Shown here: positions 4,912 to 18,971 of the stretch, piece by piece
How the letters are laid out: every line of letters starts with the position of its first letter
Position numbering within the stretch: the first letter of the stretch is position 1
Assembly: GCF_000186885.1 (NCBI RefSeq)
Contig: NC_014972.1
Span: forward strand, 660,001-692,000
DNA from: Desulfobulbus propionicus DSM 2032
GTDB taxonomy: Bacteria > Desulfobacterota > Desulfobulbia > Desulfobulbales > Desulfobulbaceae
Direction of reading: 5' to 3'
DNA length: 32,000 nt
Program-made: the position numbers and the translations under genes
The notes under the pieces: model-generated
Told to the model about the DNA's origin: nothing
Database searches by the model: none
The model's input: only the letters and a program-made list of their open reading frames with translations

Positions 4912-5727
4912 TTACCCCAGGGCCACGTCAAGAATCATCATGGTGGCAAAACCGCTCAGGGTGGCCATGGTCACCAGGTCGATATGTTTGGTGTTGCGCT
5001 GCGATTCCGGAATCAGTTCCTCCACCACCACGAAGATCATCGCCCCGGCGGCGAAACAGAGGGCATAGGGAAGGATCGGCTGCATCTTGAGGACGAACAG
5101 CGCTCCCAAAACGCCGGCGATCGGCTCGACCAGCCCCGAGGCCTGGCCGAGAAAGAAACTTTTCCGGCGGCTGAGGCCCTCGCGCCGCAACGGCATGGAC
5201 ACCGCCGTGCCCTCGGGAAAATTCTGCAGGCCGATGCCGATGGCCAGCGCCATGGCCCCGCCGATGGAGGCCGAGGGCAGATCCGCGGCCACCGCGCCGA
5301 AGGCCACGCCCACCGCCAGCCCCTCGGGGATGTTGTGCAGGGTGATGGCCAGCACCAGCAGCGTGCTGCGCTGCCAGGAGGTTTTGATCCCTTCCCGTTG
5401 GGACATGGCCAGGCCGGGATGGAGATGGGGCAGGATTCTGTCGATCAGGCGCATGAACACACCTCCGGCCATGAAGCCGACGGCAGCGGTCAGCCAGGGA
5501 GTGTGGCCCAGGGCTTCGGCCATCTCGATTCCCGGCGCCAGCAGCGACCAGAAGCTGGCCGCGATCATCACCCCGGCGGCAAAGCCGAGCAGTCCGTCGA
5601 GGAGCCGCTGGTTGATCTCGCGGTGCATGAACACCAGGCCGGCGCCGGCAGCGGTCATGGCCCAGGTGAACAGGGTGGCCAGCAGGGCCAGGAAAACAGG
5701 GTGGACATGTTGCAGAAATCCAAACAT
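4912..5727 (-). CDS. ZIP-family divalent metal (zinc/iron) transporter
   Basis: ATG at 5727 is preceded by GGGAGG. The 271-aa polytopic protein carries ZIP motifs [10 protein letters not shown] and [10 protein letters not shown]. The 677-aa ORF in the track is an upstream read-through artefact. The stop lies 5 nt before the hybrid kinase start. Confidence 0.85.
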
Positions 5728-5840
5728 GAGGAGGCCTCCCGTGGGTGGATGAGCGGTAAGAGCGTCTGCGGCGGGAAAATCGTCCGCCGGCCCTGAATAT
5801 ACTCCGTGGTCCCCTCGGACGGATATGGAAAAATGCGCGG

Positions 5841-6755
5841 TCAGCAGCGAGGAGCGGCTGTCCCGCCCGGCTCCCGCGGCAGAGAACGCATCCGTCCCGG
5901 GAGGCGGCGTTCGAGCAGGGTCTCGAAGTGGCGGACCACCTGCCAGTAGCGGCCGAGATCGATCCCGGTTTCGATCCCCATGCCGTTGAAGAGGTGGAGG
6001 GCCTCCTCGGTGGCCACGTTGCCGCCCGCTCCCTCGATGCAGGGGCAGCCGCCCAGGCCGCCCGCGGCCACGTCGAAAATGCGTACCCCGGCCTCGTAAC
6101 CGGCGTACAGGTTGACCAATCCCATGCCCCAGGTATCGTGGCAATGGAGCGACAGCTCGACCTGTGGATGGGCGGTGCGCACCAGGCCCACCAGCCGTTT
6201 GATCTGCAGGGGACCGGCCATGCCGGCGGTGTCGGCCAGGTTGATCTCCTGCGCGCCGGCCTCGACCATCCGCGCCACCGCCTCCAGCACCGTATTTTCG
6301 GCAATGACGCCTTCCTCGGCGCAACCGAAGGCGCACTGCAAACCGGCCCGCACCCGGATGCCGCCGGCCACGGCCCGGGTGATCAACCCGGTCATGGCCT
6401 CCAGGGCCTCGGCCGTGGAGCGGCCGGTGTTTGTGCGGCTGTGGCTGTCGGAGACCGAGGCGGACATGCTCAGATGGCCAAGGCCGCTGCGCGCCGCCCG
6501 TTCCAGCCCCTTTTCGTTGAGCACCAGGGCTGTGCACAGGATGTCCGGATACTGCCGCCGCACCAGGGAGACGAGCACGTCGGTGTTGGCCACCTGCGGC
6601 ACGGAACGCGGGCTGACAAAGCTGCCGAGCTGCACCCTGCGCACCCCGGCCTCGGCCAGCAGCCGGACAATCTCCATCTTTTCCGTCAGGCTGAACAGCC
6701 GGTTTTCCGCCTGCAATCCGTCCCGCAGCGACTCTTCTTCCAAGACAACCCGCAT
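5841..6755 (-). CDS. HMG-CoA lyase-like (DRE-TIM metallolyase family) protein
   Basis: ATG at 6755 follows AAGGAG. N-terminus EESLRDGLQ, metal/active-site region [10 protein letters not shown] and HCHDTWGMG, and GLGGCP near the C-terminus. Confidence 0.8.
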
Positions 6756-6792
6756 CACTTCTCCTTGATGAAATTCCCCCTCCCTGTCCAGT

Positions 6793-6808
6793 CGGCACGT
6801 TCGATGCA
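6793..6808 (+). promoter_or_regulatory. Candidate sigma-54 (-24/-12) promoter facing the kinase/PAS/activator operon
   Basis: CGGCACGTTCGATGCA has GG and GC separated by exactly 10 nt, and its -12 element ATGCA is identical to that of the strong site at 11773. The palindromic sites would lie downstream of it, which is atypical. Confidence 0.35.
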
Positions 6809-6833
6809 GGAGCGAGGGAGAAAACGACATTTT

Positions 6834-6849
6834 TGCTGCGCGCATGCCA
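6834..6849 (-). promoter_or_regulatory. Candidate sigma-54 promoter facing the HMG-CoA-lyase-like/ZIP/hybrid kinase genes
   Basis: The minus strand reads TGGCATGCGCGCAGCA with correct GG-N10-GC spacing, about 80 nt upstream of ATG 6755. It overlaps palindrome 6846-6861, so it may be a chance by-product of that motif. Confidence 0.3.
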
Positions 6850-6903
6850 CATAGGTGTGGTATGAGTGTGGCAGCGTGCCACTGGATGCCGCACAACTGT
6901 GGC
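6846..6903. promoter_or_regulatory. Pair of 16-bp palindromic sites (candidate activator binding sites), region A
   Basis: GCCACATAGGTGTGGT (6846-6861) and GCCGCACAACTGTGGC (6888-6903), starts 42 bp apart. An inverted GTGGC-N5-GCCAC lies between them at 6868-6882. Confidence 0.45.
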
Positions 6904-6943
6904 GCATTTCGATCTGGTAACGAATGAAAAATAATAGCATGTC

Positions 6944-8989
6944 ATGGACCAAGAAGCGAAAAGAATAGCGCTGTATGTGCAGCGCTACAAGCTGTTACGG
7001 GAGATCGGCGAGCTCCAGGTCGAGGCGGCGGCGGATGAGGCGGCCTTTCTCACCCGCTGTTGCGCGCTGCTGCTCCAGGATCCGGAATACTGCCTGATCT
7101 GGGTGGGCCGCGAGGAACAGGACGGCACGCTCACCCCGGTGACCACCGTGGTCCAGCAGGGACTGCCGGCCCCGCAGTGCCGGGGCTTGGTGGTTCAGCT
7201 CGTGTCCGAGGCGGCGGTCACCATCACCGCGGCCCAGGCCTTGGCCAAGGGCGAACCGGTCGTGACCAGCCTCGCGCCCGCCGAGGAATCGGAGCCGTCG
7301 CCCCTGACCCTGCTGACCACGATCACCGGCAGCCGCGTCTGCGGATCCTGGCCCCTGCTGCATGATCGGCAGAAATATGGGGTACTGACCATCCATTCGA
7401 TCCGCGAGGGCGGGTTGAGCGGCATCGAGCTCGATTTCATCGCCAACGTGGTGGCCACCATCTCGCGCACCCTCTTCCTGCGCCACACCTCGCATCACCT
7501 CCGCCTGGAGCACGACTTCAACTGCGAGATCGTGCAGACCGTGCAGGCCCTTTTGGTGTCGCTCTCCCATTGCGGCGAGATCCTCTCCTTCAACCGCACC
7601 GCCCAGGAGGTCACCGGCTACGGCGAGGCCGAGGTCAAGGGGAGGTTCTGGGTCGATGTGCTCATCAGTCCGGAGCGGCGGGCGGCCAGCCAGAACCAGC
7701 TGTCGCGGGTGCTCAAGGGAGGCCAGTCGGAGATGAATTTCCGGGCCGAACTCCAGACCCGCGGCGGCGACAAGCGGATGATCGAGTGGCACGGCTCCAT
7801 TCGGCCGGACATCGAGCAGGGCCGGGTGGGGCTGGTGCTGTTCGGCATCGACATCACCAACCGGATGGCGGCGGACCGGGCGCTCACCCATGCCCTGGCC
7901 AAGTGGGAAAACATCTTTTCCTCGGTCCAGGATCCGGCCCTGATTGTTTCCGCCCAGGGCACCATCCTCGATGTCAACCCCGCGACCGTGGCGGCGGCGC
8001 GCCGCCCCCGCGAGGAAATCATCGGCCGGGGGGTGTGCGAGATTCTCCACGGCGGCCGCAGACCGGGGGCCATCTGCCCTCTGGAGGTCCTGCTCGGCCA
8101 GCAGAAGAGCCGGATCTTCGAGACCGAGCTGCGCGGCCTGCGCGGCAACTTCCTGCTCACCGTCAGCCCCCTGCGCCAGGAGGACGGCACCTCCGAGGTC
8201 TCCCTGCTGCTCGCCCGCGACCTGACCGAAGAGCAGCTGATGAAGGCCGAGGCCTTCCGCGCCGCTCAACTGGCCTCGGTGGGCGAGCTGGCCGCCGGCG
8301 TGGCCCACGAGATCAACAACCCGATCAACGGCATCATCAACTACGCCCAGATCCTGCTCGACTCCAACCAGAGTCAGCAGCACACCCATTTCCTCCACTG
8401 CATCATCAAGGAAGGGCGGCGGATCGCCGGAATCACCAAGAATCTGCTCGATTTTTCCCGCAAGCGGGAAGAGTCGCCCGAACCGGTCAGCGTGCCCACC
8501 CTGTTCCGCCACTGCATCGAGCTGATCCAGCACCAGTACCTGATCGACGGTATTGCCCTGTCCGAGGAGTATGCCGCCGATCTGCCGCTGGCCTTCTGCA
8601 ATCCGCAGCAGATCCAGCAGGTGTTTCTCAACGTGTTCAGCAACGCCCGCTACGCCCTCAATGAACGCTACCCCCTGCCGCACGCCAACAAACGCATTGC
8701 CATCGCCGCCCTGCGCCGACAGCGCGATAACCGGGAATTCGTGCGCATCACCATCACCGATTACGGTACCGGCATCGAGCACGATTTGATGGATCGGGTG
8801 ATGGACCCCTTTTTTTCCACCAAGACCAAGGGCGAGGGCACCGGCCTGGGCTTGAGCATCAGCCACAGCCTGGTGCGGGAGAACAAGGGCTTGTTCCGCC
8901 TCCAGAGTCAGTGGGGCAAATGGACCATGGTCACCATCGATTTGCCGGCGGCTGAGGAACAGCGTGCCCGGGACGAACGTCCTCGCTGA
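6944..8989 (+). CDS. Soluble sensor histidine kinase (GAF-like N-terminus, two PAS domains, HisKA, HATPase_c)
   Basis: 681 aa with no predicted TM helix. H-box [22 protein letters not shown] (His codon 8306-8308), N-box [12 protein letters not shown]1 DYGTGI and G2 GEGTGLGLS. No Shine-Dalgarno is visible upstream of ATG 6944. Confidence 0.9.
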
Positions 8990-9034: not shown

Positions 9035-9801
9035 ATGCCTGAACAGACCCGTTTCATCGTCCAACTGGGAATCCTGTTCCTGGTGGCGGCCATCCTTCTG
9101 CTGCTGATGGACCGGCAGATGCTCATCGGTCCGGAGGAACTGGCGCAGTGGCCCTTTGCGCTGTTGTCCCTGGTGGTGGTCGCAGGACTGTTTGCGGTGG
9201 TGGCCCTGCTGACCCATGCGCGGCTGCGCGCCCTGGACCGCTCGCTCGCCGCCCTGGAGCACCAGCTGGCCGAGGCCAACCATGAACTGACCCTGACCCG
9301 CAACACCCTCGAACAGCGGGTGGAGCGGCGGACCTTTGAAATTTCGGTGGCCAACGCTTCGCTCAACCGGGAGATCGCCGAGCGGATCCAGGCCGAGGCC
9401 GAGACCAGGCGGATCAAGCGGCGGATGGAGCTGATCCTCGAATCAGCGGGCGAGGGCATCTTCGGCCTGGACATCGACGGCAAGGTGACCTTTGTCAACA
9501 AGGCCGCGGCGCTGATGCTCGGCTGGGAGGCGGACGATCTGGTCGGACAGTCGCACCATGCGCTCATTCACCACACCCGGGCCGACGGCACCTCCTACCC
9601 GGTCAGCCAGTGCCCGATCCACCAGGCCTACCGCGACGGCAAGGTCCATTTCGGCGACGACGAGGTATTCTGGAAGCGTGACGGCGCCAGTTTTCCGGTG
9701 GCATACATCAGCACCCCCATTCTGGAAAACCGCCGCCTGACCGGCGCGGTGGTGGTCTTCCGCGACCTGACCTCCTATCGCCAACCCCAGCCCCTGGGAG
9801 A

Positions 9802-9805
<4 letters not shown>
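9035..9805 (+). CDS. Membrane-anchored stand-alone PAS-domain protein (2 TM, coiled coil, PAS; no output domain)
   Basis: AAGAGGAG RBS upstream. Two hydrophobic helices (LGILFLVAAILLLL and LLSLVVVAGLFAVVALL), a heptad-rich linker, and a PAS core EGIFGLDIDGKVTFVN...CPIHQAYRDG...FWKRDGASFPV. The stop overlaps the next start (ATGA at 9802-9805). Confidence 0.8.
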
Positions 9806-11598
<1,793 letters not shown>

Positions 11599-11602
11599 GC
11601 GC

Positions 11603-11651
11603 GCCACGATTGTGTGGTCACGAAACTGTGGCGATGCCACGGTTTCGTGGT
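11603..11651. promoter_or_regulatory. Pair of 16-bp palindromic sites, region B (overlaps a hairpin that may also terminate the activator gene)
   Basis: GCCACGATTGTGTGGT (11603-11618) and GCCACGGTTTCGTGGT (11636-11651), starts 33 bp apart and about 120-170 bp upstream of the sigma-54 promoter at 11773. CACGAAACTGTGGC (11619-11632) pairs with GCCACGGTTTCGTG (11636-11649), followed by GTTTTCC. Confidence 0.5.
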
Positions 11652-11772
11652 TTTCCCTCCTGCCCGCCGCCGCGTGCCTGCCGGCTGCCCCTCGGTTGTG
11701 TCTCGATTGTTTTGTGCGGAGTCAAAGGCGGATAGGGCTAAATCGCCGGTGCGGCACCAATCCGGTTCAGTG

Positions 11773-11788
11773 TGGCACTTCCCATGCA
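11773..11788 (+). promoter_or_regulatory. Sigma-54 (-24/-12) promoter
   Basis: TGGCACTTCCCATGCA: perfect TGGCAC, exact GG-N10-GC spacing, and a -12 ATGCA. It lies 54 nt upstream of ATG 11842 and immediately downstream of a sigma-54 activator gene. Confidence 0.65.
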
Positions 11789-11841
11789 AACGTCCGTAGC
11801 CAAGTGGATAGGTATGTCCCCTCAGCTCCTGGACCGCCATC

Positions 11842-12776
11842 ATGGACACGACCAGCGCCGAAAACCAGAGTCCCATTCTCAAGACCTTTGACCAGCTCTT
11901 TCCCACGGAAGAGGACTGCGTTGCCTTTCTGTTTCCCTTGCGCTGGCCGCAGGGATTTGTCTGCCCCTTCTGCCGCACCCGTCATCCGCAGCTGACGCCC
12001 CGTCGCTACCCGGTCTGTCCGCACTGCGGCAACCGCAGTTCGCTGACCACCGGCACCCTGATGCACGGGGCCAAGAAACCGCTCCGGGAATGGCTGCTGA
12101 CCATCTGGTGGTTCAGCGCCCAGCCGCTGGATGTCAGCGCCAAGGAGTTGCAGCGGCTGCTGGGCACCTCCTGCTACCAGACGGCCTGGACCTGGCTGCA
12201 GAAACTGCGCCTGGCCATGGGGCGGGCCGATGACGAACGCTGCCGGGGGGTGGTGGAGATCGGCTGCGGCCTCGTGGCCCCGGCGTACGAGCGCAAGGAA
12301 CGCGCCCTGGTGCTGACCGCCGCCGAAATCGTGCTCGCCCTCGGCATCACCGGCCGTATTCGCATGCGCCACATCCCCCAGCTCGACCGCAAGCAGCTGG
12401 TGCTGTTTCTCCACGACGCGGTCCAGGTCAACAGTACCCTGCTCAGCGGCGACGCACAGCTGCTCGCCCTCCTGGACCAGGCAGGCCCCTATGCCGTGGC
12501 CCCGACGCAGCCCGATTCCTTGCTGCAGCCGTCGCGGGCCTTCGAGCTGGGTCGTAGTTTCGAGACCTGCCTGCACACCGTGCACCGCGGCGGGGTCACG
12601 GTCAAGCACCTCCAGCTCTACCTCGATGAATTCTGCTTTCGCAACAATGCCTCGCTCCTGTCCGATCACCAGGCGGTGTTCAGGGCCCTGCTCAGCGGCG
12701 TGCTGGGAAGCGCGGGGCATCCGGAGCAGGCGACCCGGCCGCTGCACGAGGCGGCGCGCCGCGGCGGGAGGCAGCC

Positions 12777-12780
<4 letters not shown>
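11842..12780 (+). CDS. IS1595-family transposase homolog (zinc-ribbon plus ISXO2-like domain), apparently catalytically degenerate and without IS ends
   Basis: N-terminus FPTEEDCVAFLFPLRWPQGFVCPFC...CPHCG...TTGTLMH and C-terminus KHLQLYLDEFCFRNN are hallmark IS1595 transposase motifs. The usual VE(V/I)DET catalytic motif reads VEIGCG (12256-12270). The stop overlaps the ftsH start. Confidence 0.75.
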
Positions 12781-14629
<1,849 letters not shown>

Positions 14630-14633
<4 letters not shown>

Positions 14634-15160
14634 CGATTAATCCCAAGGCCGTGCTCGCGGCCGCGGTTGTACTGCTGGCCGGGGCCTTGCCAACGCCTGG
14701 CCTGGCCCTGGAGCAGATCGATGCGCCGGAGACGGTGACCATCGATGCCCTGGCCAATCTGTATCAGCCGGTCCAATTCAGCCACAAACGACATGCGCAG
14801 CTGGCCCGATGCAAGGATTGCCATCACCACACCACCGGCCACCAGGACATGGATCCCAACTGCGTCCGCTGCCATGCCCATTCCCCGGAAGCCAGCACCG
14901 TGTCGTGCAAGGACTGCCATACCCACAAGCAGTTCTATCCCGAACAGGTCACCGCTACCGACAACCGCAACCTCTATCACATCGACAAACCGGGACTGAA
15001 GGGCGCCTACCACCTCAACTGCGTGCCCTGCCACGTGAAGAAGAACGCGCCGTCGCACTGCGAGGGCTGCCACGCCATGACCGATGCCGGCAAAACCTTC
15101 TTTCATCTTGACGGCAAGGGGCAGGGCAAGGCCAACGCCAAGGACAGCCACGGTAAATGA
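14630..15160 (+). CDS. Periplasmic pentaheme c-type cytochrome (cytochrome c3-like)
   Basis: Sec signal peptide (AVVLLAGALPTPGLA) and five CxxCH motifs: CKDCH, CVRCH, CKDCH, CVPCH, CEGCH. A c3-like VQFSHKRH motif is present. GGAGG RBS upstream, with ATGA overlap to the ftsH stop. Confidence 0.85.
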
Positions 15161-15197
15161 TCCCGCATACACATTAACGCCACAACCACAGAGGTAC

Positions 15198-16133
15198 ATG
15201 ACCATGAAGACATTGATCAATCGGAGAAGGTTTCTGCGGGGCAGTCTGGCTGCCTCGGCCGCGGCAACCGTCTCCCTGGCCAAGAAAACAGACGCCGCGA
15301 CCTTTGAGGGCTATCCCGACGCCATGGGCGTGCTGGTCGACCTGTCGCGCTGCGTCGGCTGCCGCAGCTGCGAGGCCGCGTGCAACAAGGAGCAGCACCT
15401 GCCCGCGCCGGAAAAGCCGTTCAACGATTTTTCGGTCTTCGACGAGCTGCACCACGGTCAGAAGCGACGCACCGACGAGACCCGCTACACGGTGGTCAAC
15501 CGCTACGACATTCCCGGCAGCGAGCATCCGCTCTTTCGCAAGATCCAGTGCAACCATTGCCTGGAGCCGGCCTGCCTGACCAGCTGTTTCGTCAATGCCT
15601 ACACCAAGACCCCAGAGGGCGCGGTCGTCTACGACCCCAGCGTGTGCGTGGGCTGCCGGACCTGCATGATCGCCTGCCCCTTCTATATCCCGACCTTCCG
15701 CTACTCCAGCGCGTTCAAGCCGCGGATCATGAAGTGCGTCTTCTGCCACGATACCCGCTTGACCAAGGGACTGCCGCCGGCCTGCGTCGAAGCCTGTCCG
15801 CAGGAGGCCCTGACCTTCGGCCGCCGTTCCGACCTGGTGGCCATGGGCACGCAGCGCATTCGCGAGAATCCCGGCGCCTATGTCGACCATATCTACGGCG
15901 AGCACGAAGCCGGCGGAACCTCCTGGATGTATCTGTCACCGGCGCCCTTCGACCAGGTGGGCATGGACACCTCGGTTCCCAAGGAGCCCATCCTCAACTA
16001 TGTCAAGGACTTCCTGTCCATCGTCCCCATGGTGCTGACCATCTGGCCGGCCTTGTTTGCCGGGTTCAATCTCCTGGCGACCAGGAAAGACACAATGGAA
16101 CAACAGAAGAACAACAACGAGGGGGAGGTCTGA
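15198..16133 (+). CDS. NrfC/HybA-like 4Fe-4S ferredoxin subunit with Tat signal and C-terminal TM anchor
   Basis: Twin-arginine signal NRRRFLRGSLAASAAA. Four cluster motifs: CVGCRSCEAAC, CNHCLEPAC, CVGCRTCMIACP and CVFCHD...ACVEACP. A C-terminal hydrophobic helix is present. The start may be ATG 15204 instead. Confidence 0.88.
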   Translation: MTMKTLINRRRFLRGSLAASAAATVSLAKKTDAATFEGYPDAMGVLVDLSRCVGCRSCEAACNKEQHLPAPEKPFNDFSVFDELHHGQKRRTDETRYTVVNRYDIPGSEHPLFRKIQCNHCLEPACLTSCFVNAYTKTPEGAVVYDPSVCVGCRTCMIACPFYIPTFRYSSAFKPRIMKCVFCHDTRLTKGLPPACVEACPQEALTFGRRSDLVAMGTQRIRENPGAYVDHIYGEHEAGGTSWMYLSPAPFDQVGMDTSVPKEPILNYVKDFLSIVPMVLTIWPALFAGFNLLATRKDTMEQQKNNNEGEV

Positions 16134-16136
16134 GCC

Positions 16137-17390
16137 ATGCACACCTTTATCAACAACAAGCAGGAAATTCCGGTTGTCTCCCATCTCAAGCCGGATGGGG
16201 GGGTGTGGACCGTCAAGGAAAAACTCTGGCTGGGCCTGAGCCGCGAGGACTACAAGGCCCAGTTCCTGCGCAACCCGGTCAATTGGGTACTGATCTTCAT
16301 TTTCGCCATCGGCGTGCCGCTGCTCATCCAGCGCTACCTGTTCGGGCTCGATACCGTCACCCACGCCTCCAACGACTATCCCTGGGGCCTGTTTTTGGGG
16401 TTCGGGCTGTTCGGCATGGTGCCCCTGTCCGCCTCGGGGTTTCTGCTGGGCACCACGGTGGAGATTTTCGGCCGCAAGGATTTCGCGCCCATCGAACGGC
16501 TGGCCCTGCTCAACGGCCTGCTCGGCTACTTCTTTGCCGTCGTCTATCTTCTGGTCGATTTGGGCATGCCCTGGCGCCTCTACTACCCGATGTTCATCTC
16601 GCTCGGGCCGGCGGCGGTGCTCTTCCTCGTGGCCTGGCATGTGGCCACCTACCTGTCGGTGCAGATCGCCGAGGTGTCGTCGGCTTATTTCGAGTGGGTC
16701 GGCTGGCTCAAGGGCAAACGATTTGTCAAGTCGATCACCATCGGTCTGACCATCGCCGGCATCATCCTGTCCACCCTGCACCAGGGGGCGTTGGGCGCGC
16801 TGTTCACCTACGCGCCCACCAAGGTCCACCCGCTCTGGTTTTCGGCCAACTTTCAGTGGATCCATTTCTTCTGCTCGGCCATCTTCGCCGGCCTGTCCAT
16901 GGTCATCTGCTCCGCGACCCTGTGCAAGCATTTCATGATCTGGCGCTGCGACCGCCGCTTCCTGGACAACGTCGACCGATGCACTCTCGGGCTGGGCAAG
17001 GGATGTGCCTATGCCCTGATCACCTATCTGGTGATCAAGCTGGTCGGGGTGGCGCATGACCAGGATTGGGCCTACCTGCTGACCGGCTGGGGGCAATATT
17101 TCCTCCTGGAAATGGCGGTGGCCGTGGTGCTGCCGATGATCCTCTTCGCCTACGGGGTCAAGCACCGGCGCGTGGCCATGGTGCGCTTCGCCGCCCTGAT
17201 CAGCGTGCTCGGCATTGTCTGGAACCGGCTCAACACCTCGATGATCTGCTTCAACTGGCAGCTCTACCAGGAGATCCCGCATTGGAAGGAGGTGTGGATC
17301 ACCATCACCATCTTCGCCCTCTATTTCATCGTCTATCGGTTCATTCTCTACCGGTTGCCGATCCTGTATGAATGGCGGGGCGAAAAATGA
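16137..17390 (+). CDS. NrfD/PsrC-family integral membrane quinol-interacting subunit
   Basis: 417-aa polytopic membrane protein with about 8-10 helices, placed immediately after the NrfC-like gene (3-nt gap, GGGGGAGG RBS). This is the typical NrfC-NrfD pairing. Confidence 0.85.
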   Translation: MHTFINNKQEIPVVSHLKPDGGVWTVKEKLWLGLSREDYKAQFLRNPVNWVLIFIFAIGVPLLIQRYLFGLDTVTHASNDYPWGLFLGFGLFGMVPLSASGFLLGTTVEIFGRKDFAPIERLALLNGLLGYFFAVVYLLVDLGMPWRLYYPMFISLGPAAVLFLVAWHVATYLSVQIAEVSSAYFEWVGWLKGKRFVKSITIGLTIAGIILSTLHQGALGALFTYAPTKVHPLWFSANFQWIHFFCSAIFAGLSMVICSATLCKHFMIWRCDRRFLDNVDRCTLGLGKGCAYALITYLVIKLVGVAHDQDWAYLLTGWGQYFLLEMAVAVVLPMILFAYGVKHRRVAMVRFAALISVLGIVWNRLNTSMICFNWQLYQEIPHWKEVWITITIFALYFIVYRFILYRLPILYEWRGEK

Positions 17391-17402
17391 TGTGGCAGGT
17401 TG

Positions 17403-17445
17403 CGGATTCCGGCAGCCCCCTGGCCTCTTCCCGTGCCGGAATCCG
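17403..17445 (+). other. Strong intercistronic stem-loop (12-bp perfect stem)
   Basis: CGGATTCCGGCA (17403-17414) pairs with TGCCGGAATCCG (17434-17445) around a 19-nt loop. No U-tract follows. It lies between the nrfD-like stop and the GGAGG RBS of the next gene. Confidence 0.5.
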
Positions 17446-17466
17446 TGACCACCTCGGAGGTCTGTC

Positions 17467-18918
17467 GTGACGTCCCGCAGACAAGGCGCTCGCCGGTGGC
17501 CATGGACCGATTGGCCGCTCAACCGGCTGTTTGCCGCCATCACCGTCTCGGTGCTGCTGTTTCTTTCGGCGGTCCTGGTTCTCGGCGTCCGCCAGTATCT
17601 GCTCTATCACCAATGCCGCCAGGCGGTGGCTGCGGGCGACCGGCTGCTGTTCCAGTTCACCGCCATCAAGGATCATCTCGACGGCTCCCTGATTGTCGGC
17701 GAGGAGGTCAATCTTCATGCCCTTGACGCGGAATTGCAGAGCCTTGAAAAAGAGGTGGGCGCATTGGCGGCCAACATCCTGGTGCCCGAGGGGCTGAAGC
17801 GGATGCTGCCCTCCCGGGTGGACCTGGTCGGTCTGGAGGTGCGGCTGCGGGCGGTGCAGGAGAACCGCCCGCAAAAGATCCGGGAAGCGGCGGAACTGGT
17901 CCGTTCCCTTGGCGGGATCAATGTCGGCTTGCAGCAGTTTCGCTTTAGCCTGAGTGATCATACGCAAATTATCCTTCTGGGCCTGCACAAGATCATTGCC
18001 GGCGCCCTGGGGCTGATCGTGGTCGTGTCCTGTTCGCTGCTGTTCGTGCTCAACCGCCGCCTGGCCGGCCCGATCCTGGCCCTGTGCAGGCTGACCGCCG
18101 CCGCTGGCCCGGACGAGGAGGATTCGAGCTGTTCCCTGCACACCCTGACCGATCGCATTCGCCAACTGCTGGACCGGGAGAGGGAACGGGAGCAATCCCC
18201 AGCGCCGGCCGCGCCGACCACCCCCGATCAGCTTCGTCTGGCCGCGCTCCGCTACCGGTACGGCGTGACGGGCTGGATCGGCACGGAACTGGCGAGCGAG
18301 CTGACCAACCGCATCAACGGGGTGATCAACTACACGCAGGCGCTGATCGATCTCAACGAGCAAGGGAAGGGGGACCGGCAGCAGATGGCTCGGGTCTGCG
18401 AGCTGCTGGCCAGCGAGGAAAAGAAGACCGCAGAACTGGTCGGAGCCCTGCAACGGATCTGTCAGTGGCAGCCCGCGCGGACATCAAGCGTCTCCCTGCG
18501 CACCCTGTTTCATCTCCTGGGCCTGATTTTCGAGAAATCGCTGCGGGCCGAATCCATTCTCCTCACCCTGCCGGCCGACTGCGATGCCGAGGCCGCGGTC
18601 GCCGCCGGCGATCTCTGGCTGGTGGCCCTGACCCTGGTGGAGCAGGGCCGCCGGATCCTGCTCGACGGCATGGCCGATCCGCCCGGGGAAAAACGGCTGC
18701 ATATCGAATGCAGGAAACAGCCAGGCGAGCGTTTTCGGCTGACACTGCTGTTCACCAACAGCGCCGGTCTGTGGGAGGCCCCCCTGGACCCAGTTTGGCC
18801 GTCGCTCTCCTTCTGCACGCATCTGTTGCAGGTGCATGACGCCTCGCTCACCCTGGAAGCCTCCGACGGCGGGACGCTCCTGCTCCTTGAACTGCCGTGC
18901 CGCGGTTCCGTGGCATAA
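17467..18918 (+). CDS. Membrane-bound degenerate histidine-kinase paralog (pseudo-kinase: H-box His replaced, ATP-binding boxes absent)
   Basis: GTG start 6 nt after GGAGG, and two TM segments. The DHp-like segment ELASELTNRINGVINYTQALIDL aligns with [26 protein letters not shown] of the kinase at 6944, with Ser (AGC 18295-18297) at the His position. No recognisable N, G1 or G2 boxes. Confidence 0.7.
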   Translation: MTSRRQGARRWPWTDWPLNRLFAAITVSVLLFLSAVLVLGVRQYLLYHQCRQAVAAGDRLLFQFTAIKDHLDGSLIVGEEVNLHALDAELQSLEKEVGALAANILVPEGLKRMLPSRVDLVGLEVRLRAVQENRPQKIREAAELVRSLGGINVGLQQFRFSLSDHTQIILLGLHKIIAGALGLIVVVSCSLLFVLNRRLAGPILALCRLTAAAGPDEEDSSCSLHTLTDRIRQLLDREREREQSPAPAAPTTPDQLRLAALRYRYGVTGWIGTELASELTNRINGVINYTQALIDLNEQGKGDRQQMARVCELLASEEKKTAELVGALQRICQWQPARTSSVSLRTLFHLLGLIFEKSLRAESILLTLPADCDAEAAVAAGDLWLVALTLVEQGRRILLDGMADPPGEKRLHIECRKQPGERFRLTLLFTNSAGLWEAPLDPVWPSLSFCTHLLQVHDASLTLEASDGGTLLLLELPCRGSVA

Positions 18919-18940
18919 CGCCGTTTTCATGAAGACGATG

Positions 18941-18971
18941 ACGCCGCACTGTGGTGCGGCGTTTGTTTATT
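18941..18971 (+). terminator. Rho-independent terminator ending the six-gene operon
   Basis: ACGCCGCAC (18941-18949) pairs with GTGCGGCGT (18954-18962) around the loop TGTG, followed by TTGTTTATT. Confidence 0.7.

Follow-up and report, generated by a model that had tools for sequence, protein, structure and literature searches.

The gene Despr_0623 of Desulfobulbus propionicus DSM 2032 raises the question of whether a transposase homologue that stands directly in front of ftsH still belongs to a mobile element or has become a gene of its host. It was analysed within a stretch of 32,000 nucleotides of D. propionicus DNA (contig NC_014972.1, positions 660,001 to 692,000 of the forward strand), here called the window, from whose first letter all positions are counted. 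The open reading frame (ORF) at 11842-12780 on the + strand encodes a protein of 312 aa that is identical to Despr_0623 and publicly annotated as 'hypothetical protein'. A preliminary description, made from the letters of the window, had read it as an exapted protein rather than as part of a mobile element. This view was supported, and all of the tests proposed there favoured domestication when run. Despr_0623 is homologous to IS1595-family transposases, has lost their catalytic set and their mobility, and has long been maintained by vertical descent, under selection and at a fixed position in an operon. There is strong support for the conclusion that it descends from an IS1595-family transposase with the D-D-H-K plus E-R4-R7 pattern and has been exapted in a catalytically dead form, and likewise for a history in which the dead transposase was fixed once in an ancestor of the Desulfobulbales and was passed on from then on as a vertical, single-copy host gene.

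Homologues and genomic context

Relatives were collected by a scan of one genome per GTDB species, which returned 80 loci. A common arrangement was found in 68 of them, consisting of a gene for a sigma-54 activator, the homologue, ftsH and then a cytochrome gene or Hmc-like redox genes. The search for orthologues at the same locus, as suggested in the preliminary description, thus found the gene in front of ftsH in 68 Desulfobulbales genomes, each representing one species. These syntenic loci were derived from Desulfobulbus, Desulfocapsa, Desulforhopalus, Desulfopila, Desulfoprunum and related metagenome-assembled genomes. The named genera, which we place in the families Desulfobulbaceae and Desulfocapsaceae, belong to the order Desulfobulbales. 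The remaining 12 loci lay mostly outside the Desulfobulbales and lacked the syntenic context. Across the syntenic loci, identity to the window protein ranged from 77% down to 33% (FtsH: 85% down to 56%), and the full-length ORF was intact in 64 aligned species, down to 33% identity.

Loss of the catalytic site

The catalytic residues were compared in an alignment of 64 syntenic proteins with 10 non-syntenic proteins encoded by insertion sequences (IS). All 10 IS proteins carry the motifs VEVDETYVGG, TDGW, HRxxSLLKRW and DEYTFRFNRR, which make up the D-D-H-K(R) set together with the E-R4-R7 pattern. This closest active subgroup, defined by D-D-H-K plus E-R4-R7, is taken by us to be the ISSod11-like group of the ISfinder classification. 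The D-D-H-K(R) set was complete in 10/10 of these relatives and in 0/64 of the syntenic orthologues. In Despr_0623, VEIGCG (12253-12270) aligns with the VEVDET of the active relatives, with G141 in place of the first Asp; the position of the second Asp is occupied by G204, and the catalytic signature as a whole reads G/G/F/E. The replacement of VE(V/I)DET by VEIGCG and the loss of the first Asp had been recognised in the preliminary description, but with a start at 12256, one codon downstream of the actual one. The region expected to hold HxVNH and TNxIEG had also been called divergent there. It is indeed divergent and has lost its catalytic motifs, but the two motifs named belong to other IS1595 subgroups; the relevant pattern is D-D-H-K plus E-R4-R7, and the motifs lost in Despr_0623 are the TDGW and HRxxSLLKRW of its closest active relatives. 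The intact set of DDE_Tnp_IS1595 (D, D and N/H/E, with K) is accordingly missing from Despr_0623.

Among the 64 syntenic proteins, the first Asp is replaced by G in 25 and by S in 11 cases; D is found in 11, which belong to the deeper clade, and that clade is devoid of the other catalytic residues. The second-Asp column holds P in 32 proteins, the His column is variable, and the Lys column holds E in 44. From the E-R4-R7 pattern, the Glu was kept in 63/64 and the first Arg (R4) in 56/64 proteins, whereas R7 was found in 0/64. In the deepest syntenic member (L051), the second Asp (D2) is still present and the catalytic-His column is occupied by a His.

Loss of mobility

An IS-type pair of inverted repeats flanking Despr_0623 was not found, the only matches being GC-rich stretches of 15-16 nt. 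Terminal inverted repeats starting with GG at both ends were lacking, and a single motif resembling the repeat core remains at 11802-11812. The absence of IS ends, as originally proposed, therefore holds for the inverted-repeat pair but not for this one 11-nt motif. Since the locus has no element ends, there is nothing that an 8-bp target-site duplication could flank. The window contains no second copy of the gene, the exact protein was found in one gene context only (23 contigs), and the homologue occupies the same position in the 68 species. Neither multiple copies nor the variable location of an IS1595 element was thus observed, and the search for additional copies recommended earlier gave, within this coverage, no sign of mobility.

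The active relatives, by contrast, have recognisable element ends. Terminal inverted repeats of 26-48 nt, spaced by about 1 kb and of the form GGGG(C)TATCCACTT..., were identified in six of six relatives searched. Target duplications of 8 bp were clear in four relatives (L057, L075, L076 and L077) and likely in two more (L060 and L069). Both features fit the IS1595 family as described previously (PMC8101967). For Despr_0623, an active IS was rejected on the grounds of the missing repeat pair, the missing target duplication, the single context and the dead catalytic set.

Two of the loci (L015 and L069) stem from one metagenome-assembled Desulfobulbus genome, CAZMNU01, which carries both a tamed syntenic gene and an intact IS1595-type element, the latter with terminal repeats of 26 nt on a 2-kb contig (L069). 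Tamed and active relatives therefore coexist within this genome. Outside the syntenic clade, many representatives of IS1595-like clusters at 50% identity (within P0122-P0267) have degenerate catalytic signatures, often with the first Asp replaced by Gly, and some small clades are degenerate in every member. These could reflect decay or further exaptations. One of them, P0160, was considered as another domesticated IS1595 clade and rejected: it is a singleton, its closest relatives are ordinary copies of IS that lie on contigs of about 1 kb, and it is therefore probably a decaying copy.

Descent and selection

When 103 further representatives were added and a neighbour-joining tree was built, the syntenic proteins all fell into one clade. 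This clade also holds 20 metagenomic sequences, none of them with an intact catalytic set, and the absence of any intact transposase inside it fits a single domestication.

Ratios of nonsynonymous to synonymous substitution rates (dN/dS) were taken from close pairs only (dS 0.2-0.8), since dS is near saturation in distant pairs. They amounted to 0.08-0.32 for the Despr_0623 gene, 0.07-0.22 for ftsH and 0.07-0.18 for the activator gene, so that the dN/dS analysis called for in the preliminary description revealed purifying selection. When resolved by domain, residues 1-130 had a median dN/dS of 0.12, compared with 0.25 in the former catalytic core and 0.13 in the C-terminal helices, and the tail was near neutral. 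Nonsynonymous divergence of the gene was correlated with that of FtsH (Spearman 0.92, 990 pairs) and proceeded about twice as fast. The features of a domesticated transposase, namely conserved synteny with co-divergence, an intact ORF under purifying selection and the loss of the hallmarks of mobility, are hence found together at this locus. A neutral relic was rejected on the grounds of the dN/dS values and of the intact ORFs in the 64 aligned species.

A retained DNA-recognition module on a dead scaffold

Despr_0623 reached 76.7 bits with the NCBIfam model transpos_IS1595 (NF033547; cut-off 75), a marginal pass by 1.7 bits that places it within the curated IS1595 transposase family as far as sequence homology is concerned. 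With the Pfam models, it scored 42 bits against Zn_ribbon_IS1595 (PF12760; cut-off 25.4) and 21.3 bits against DDE_Tnp_IS1595 (PF12762), which is under the cut-off of 27; the PF12762 match begins at profile position 34, past the first-Asp block. The scoring of catalytic residues that had been suggested along with these hidden Markov models (HMMs) came out in favour of domestication, the set being lost in 64/64 orthologues and intact in 10/10 relatives.

The zinc ribbon noted earlier (CPFC...CPHC) is present as C41-C44 and C59-C62, and all four Cys are invariant in 64/64 aligned syntenic orthologues. The C-terminal block KHLQLYLDEFCFRNN, also noted earlier, spans K255-N269. The best-conserved part of the protein is the region resembling a helix-turn-helix (HTH), with 63% identity among orthologues; its identity to active IS transposases is 47%, compared with 20% in the core. 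A model obtained with AlphaFold 2 (AF2) from 72 family members had a predicted local distance difference test (pLDDT) score of 90 and a predicted template modelling (pTM) score of 0.86. The model has N-terminal helices, followed by the zinc ribbon and three HTH-like helices; its alpha/beta core is RNase H-like and its tail disordered. Foldseek matched it to the ISCth4 transposase, retroviral integrases and Metnase. Despr_0623 has retained the DNA-recognition module of the transposases, made up of the N-terminal helices, the four-Cys zinc ribbon and the HTH region, and its RNase H-like domain has been kept as a folded scaffold.

Promoter, coupling to ftsH and a repeat-core-like motif

Despr_0623 is the first gene behind a predicted sigma-54 promoter (TGGCAC-N5-ATGCA, 11773-11788), as the preliminary description had stated. 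The pattern TGGCAY-N5-NTGCW precedes the gene in 62 syntenic loci, in most cases at 57-78 nt from the ATG, compared with 0/12 IS loci, and an AGGCAY variant was found in further loci. The two elements of a sigma-54 operon, a -24/-12 promoter of the TGGCAC-N5-TTGCW type and an enhancer-binding protein, are both recognisable, with the NtrC-type activator encoded directly upstream. A hairpin at 11619-11649, 20 nt past the stop codon of the activator gene, is probably the terminator of that gene, in which case transcription of the downstream operon would have to come from the operon's own sigma-54 promoter.

At its 3' end, the gene is joined to ftsH. The stop codon had been said to overlap the ftsH start, and this was confirmed as an ATGA at 12777-12780; the GGGAGG Shine-Dalgarno sequence of ftsH sits within the 3' end of the Despr_0623 ORF. 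In 63/65 loci, no more than 26 nt separate the stop from the start of ftsH (33 ATGA overlaps, 5 overlaps of one nt, 24 gaps of 0-20 nt and 1 gap of 26 nt). From this arrangement we infer that Despr_0623 is co-translated with ftsH, which would link the amounts of the two proteins.

When the upstream regions were aligned at the promoter, a second conserved element, AAGTGGATA(A/G)GT, was found 14-15 nt after the -12 TGCA, at a fixed spacing. In the window, the AAGTGGATA(A/G)G element corresponds to 11802-11812 (AAGTGGATAGG, 11 nt, at about +4 to +14), the only match to AAGTGGATAGG within the window. Its reverse complement is the core of the IS terminal repeats, CTATCCACTT or C(C/T)TATCCACTT, which in the active relatives is the inner stretch of the repeat that is conserved best. 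The syntenic loci (773 kb) contain 40 exact matches to AGTGGATA(A/G)G, of which 37 are on the + strand and at most 200 nt upstream of the gene; about 3 matches are expected by chance. The 7-mer core of the motif was 12-fold enriched upstream of the gene. In the clade of Desulfopila and Desulforhopalus, the motif reads (A/C)CAGGATAGG. The spacer between the activator gene and the tamed gene of L051 is 1.2 kb long (L051 4790-5990) and AT-rich, and contains three copies of GGATAGGT, one of which directly follows the sigma-54 promoter. A second GGATAGG is present in the window at 11730-11736, upstream of the sigma-54 promoter, and is not conserved in the closest relatives.

The survival of a motif resembling the repeat core just past the promoter strengthens the DNA-binding reading given originally. 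A regulator and its operator are expected to show conservation both of the DNA-binding domain and of a cis element at the promoter, and both are present, judged by sequence.

Proposed function

The N-terminal HTH of other DDE transposases binds the inner part of the terminal repeat. If the zinc-ribbon and HTH module of Despr_0623 still recognises the repeat core, which we infer by analogy with those transposases, the protein would be an autoregulator of the sigma-54 ftsH-hmc operon. In the proposed mechanism, Despr_0623 would bind at its own sigma-54 promoter, on the AAGTGGATA(A/G)G site located at about +4 to +14. This operator would be derived from the transposase-binding core of an IS terminal repeat, the cleaved GGGG tip having been lost. 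Once bound, the protein would determine by autoregulation how strongly the ftsH-hmc operon is expressed, its simplest role being that of a promoter-proximal repressor, and the stop/start overlap would tie the synthesis of Despr_0623 to that of FtsH. FtsH may in turn, more speculatively, control the stability of Despr_0623. We give the core of this proposal, an exapted dead transposase that binds a repeat-derived operator and autoregulates the ftsH-hmc operon, about an even chance of being right. Its extension to a feedback loop, in which Despr_0623 represses through the repeat relic and the co-made FtsH degrades Despr_0623, is unlikely as a whole; if true, operon output would report FtsH load and thereby tune the membrane Hmc-like redox complex across the Desulfobulbales.

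Several observations weigh against autoregulation through a repeat relic. The likeness between the motif and the IS repeat extends over only 9-10 nt, neither the GGGG tip nor the inner repeat has been retained, and the deeper clade (Desulfopila, Desulforhopalus) keeps only GGATAGG. The motif is oriented like a right end, opposite to the left-end repeat, and is therefore no simple left-end relic; in a few syntenic loci, no recognisable motif was found. A 22-nt matrix of the whole IS end scored no better across the loci than on shuffled sequence, so that a match to the full repeat was rejected and the claim is limited to a relic of the core. Another factor could also bind the motif, or the motif could be recognised as single-stranded RNA. 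That the dead core is still under purifying selection (dN/dS 0.25) and that coupling to ftsH is universal are hints of a function other than DNA binding alone. The monophyly on which the single origin rests was, moreover, obtained from a neighbour-joining tree without bootstrap support.

The main competing explanation is that Despr_0623 is a partner of FtsH, i.e. an adaptor, modulator, assembly factor or dedicated substrate, made in fixed proportion to the protease through translational coupling, with the promoter motif unrelated to it. This appears possible, though clearly less probable than autoregulation. The close junction described above (63/65 loci, with 38 overlaps) and the position of the ftsH Shine-Dalgarno sequence within the 3' end of the gene would fit such a partnership, as would the fact that the gene was never parted from ftsH in 68 species. 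The same holds for purifying selection on the non-catalytic core (0.25) and the C-terminal helices (0.13), and for the disordered C-terminal tail of the AF2 model; FtsH begins degradation at disordered tails. However, tight overlaps are common in operons and are no proof of interaction, the best-conserved part of the protein is the DNA-recognition region that it has in common with active transposases, the four Cys of the zinc ribbon are invariant, and the repeat-core-like motif at the promoter would be left unexplained. The partner and the regulator models are compatible and can coexist.

Despr_0623 might instead be a DNA-binding regulator of a regulon elsewhere in the genome, the promoter motif being the site of another factor or a sequence element of the mRNA 5' end. 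The conserved DNA-binding module would suit this role as well, the match to the IS repeat is short (9-10 nt), and the motif scan covered about 12 kb per genome. We regard it as improbable, more so than a partnership with FtsH, because the motif is almost confined to the promoter site in the 773 kb of syntenic loci, and because a chance 9-mer that makes the sole conserved non-promoter element coincide with the repeat core of the closest relatives would be unlikely (rough estimate, 1e-4 to 5e-3). Within the cluster (about 12 kb per locus), a regulon was not supported, as the motif was not found before other genes. An RNA structure in the 5' untranslated region (UTR) was likewise rejected as the cause of motif conservation, given a mean z of +0.35 and motif pairing that was inconsistent between loci.

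A decaying, functionless IS relic that hitch-hikes before ftsH is very improbable and already contradicted: the lost catalytic residues, the Pfam DDE domain below its cut-off and the isolated degenerate IS1595-like copies found elsewhere, such as P0160, would agree with it, but the full-length ORFs in 64 aligned species down to 33% identity, the dN/dS of 0.08-0.32, the confident predicted fold and the conservation of promoter, motif and ftsH overlap alike do not. Least credible of all is an active transposase or site-specific recombinase with unconventional catalytic residues, for although the protein still has an RNase H-like fold, most members share E139 and E162 and an Asp stands in the first-Asp column of 11 deeper-clade members, no member has more than part of the catalytic set, and the gene is single-copy, without repeat pair or target duplication and fixed in position over order-level divergence.

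The operon and neighbouring genes

Despr_0623 is the first cistron of a predicted sigma-54-dependent operon that continues with ftsH, the hmcA-like, hmcB-like and hmcC-like genes and orf483 (Table 1). This ftsH-hmc operon is probably turned on by the products of the neighbouring genes, namely the histidine kinase, the PAS protein and the NtrC-type activator, and it is probable that the activator (9802-11598) acts on the promoter downstream of its own gene. The cluster from the kinase gene through orf483 is conserved as a whole across related loci, and the activator is syntenic in most of them (53-82% identity). The true start of the hmcB-like gene is perhaps near 15204, judging by the gene call in locus L081. 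For orf483, neither a Pfam nor an NCBIfam match was found.

Table 1. Positions of the features discussed, counted from the first letter of the window
Feature	Position	Strand	Evidence and remarks
Sensor histidine kinase, first gene of the conserved cluster	6944..8989	+	Pfam PAS, HisKA, HATPase_c; in 47 related loci
PAS-domain protein	9035..9805	+	Pfam and NCBIfam; in 47 related loci
NtrC-type sigma-54 activator	9802..11598	+	Pfam receiver, PAS, Sigma54_activat (225 bits), HTH_8
Hairpin with near-perfect 14-nt arms and 3-nt loop, then T-run	11619..11649	+	Inverted-repeat search and sequence; probable function
Predicted sigma-54 (-24/-12) promoter TGGCACTTCCCATGCA	11773..11788	+	Predicted transcription start near 11799
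AAGTGGATAGG, proposed operator and repeat relic	11802..11812	+	About +4 to +14 of the promoter; conserved spacing
Despr_0623, exapted IS1595-family transposase homologue (strongly supported)	11842..12780	+	312 aa
Zinc ribbon, C41-x2-C44 ... C59-x2-C62	11962..12027	+	PF12760
Helical HTH-like region, residues 69-130, includes SCYQTAWTWLQKLR	12046..12231	+	Helices 81-93, 100-107 and 112-129 (AF2)
RNase H-like core, residues 131-230, without catalytic residues	12232..12531	+	Alignment; confident predicted fold
KHLQLYLDEFCFRNN block, K255-N269	12604..12648	+	E263 and R267 retained; +7 Arg of E-R4-R7 replaced by Ala
ATGA stop/start overlap of Despr_0623 and ftsH	12777..12780	+	Sequence
ftsH, membrane AAA+ zinc metalloprotease, 618 aa	12777..14633	+	TIGR01241, 725 bits; Pfam AAA, Peptidase_M41, FtsH_ext
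HmcA-like cytochrome c, five CxxCH motifs	14630..15160	+	Partial NCBIfam matches, translation, synteny
HmcB-like periplasmic iron-sulfur (FeS) protein	15084..16133	+	NF045715, 401 bits (cut-off 420); in 58 loci
HmcC-like (NrfD-type) integral membrane subunit	16137..17390	+	NF045714, 359 bits (cut-off 550); in 57 loci
orf483, membrane protein (483 aa), last operon gene	17467..18918	+	Weakly like histidine kinases; in 40 loci
Strong intrinsic terminator-like hairpin ending the operon	18940..18963	+	10 pairs, 7 of them G-C

The Hmc-like genes form a membrane redox module 3' of ftsH (14630-18963), and a protease gene inside a respiratory operon is unusual. Such a module in combination with a putatively sigma-54-controlled FtsH is unstudied in the sulfur-cycling Desulfobulbales. 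Divergent from the two-component genes, a gene on the - strand (4912-6945) encodes a 677-aa protein with a C-terminal ZIP zinc-transporter domain; it adjoins the operon for a zinc-ribbon protein and a zinc metalloprotease.

Comparison with known systems

Transposase domestication is well documented in eukaryotes, and in bacteria it is known for RNA-guided nucleases, such as TnpB as the source of Cas12 and TldR. Literature searches with locus tags, IS1595 domestication and Pfam domain names as terms retrieved no prior description of Despr_0623 or of a bacterial IS1595 exaptation; nor was recruitment of a classical DDE insertion-sequence transposase as a bacterial host gene found in the literature. 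The present case is unusually clean, in that the event is order-wide, arose once and is dated by phylogeny. Active relatives with terminal repeats are available for direct comparison, and the candidate repeat-derived operator at a defined promoter makes the hypothesis directly testable. It also bears on annotation: in their source records, several orthologues bear the name 'IS1595 family transposase', and systematic mis-annotation of a non-mobile gene in this way inflates mobile-element counts.

With IS of the IS1595 family, Despr_0623 has in common a whole-length homology (32-38% identity) and the domain order of N-terminal helices, four-Cys zinc ribbon, HTH, RNase H-like core and YLDEFxFRxN helix, and the motif upstream of the gene matches the core of their terminal repeats. 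Unlike them, it lacks the catalytic D, D, H and K and the +7 Arg, has neither a repeat pair nor an 8-bp duplication, is present as a single copy in fixed synteny, and stands behind a host sigma-54 promoter, joined to ftsH.

Among bacterial systems, TldR proteins are nuclease-dead TnpB derivatives whose function as RNA-guided transcription repressors has been shown experimentally (PMC10705468). Both are transposon-encoded DNA-targeting proteins that have lost catalysis and become fixed beside host genes, with control of transcription only proposed for Despr_0623. The two differ in fold and ancestry, which are unrelated (RuvC/TnpB versus a DDE transposase), and in the mode of recognition: TldR is guided by RNA, whereas Despr_0623 would read DNA directly through its zinc ribbon and HTH.

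Transcription factors derived from transposases exist in eukaryotes. Domesticated DDE transposases of eukaryotes resemble Despr_0623 in their exaptation, the retention of the DNA-binding domain and single-copy orthologues under purifying selection, but have eukaryotic hosts, whereas Despr_0623 is bacterial. In ciliates, proteins with DDE_Tnp_IS1595/Merlin domains are encoded by the somatic genome and represent domesticated DDE transposases (PMC3558436, PMC9942806); they are discussed as candidate excisases, some of them with intact catalytic sites (PMC3558436, PMC9942806).

The proposed use of the DNA-binding module of a transposase on terminal-repeat sequence, with control of its own transcription as the outcome, would be shared with mobile elements such as IS1. 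There, InsA mediates transposase autoregulation at the left terminal repeat, where the sequence bound overlaps the element's own promoter. In the case of Despr_0623, by contrast, the promoter is a sigma-54 promoter of the host, the motif is oriented opposite to a left-end repeat, and the regulated genes would be host genes. Should the feedback loop considered above prove true, it would provide the first demonstrated case in bacteria of a transcription factor that descends from a DDE transposase and acts on an operator derived from its repeat.

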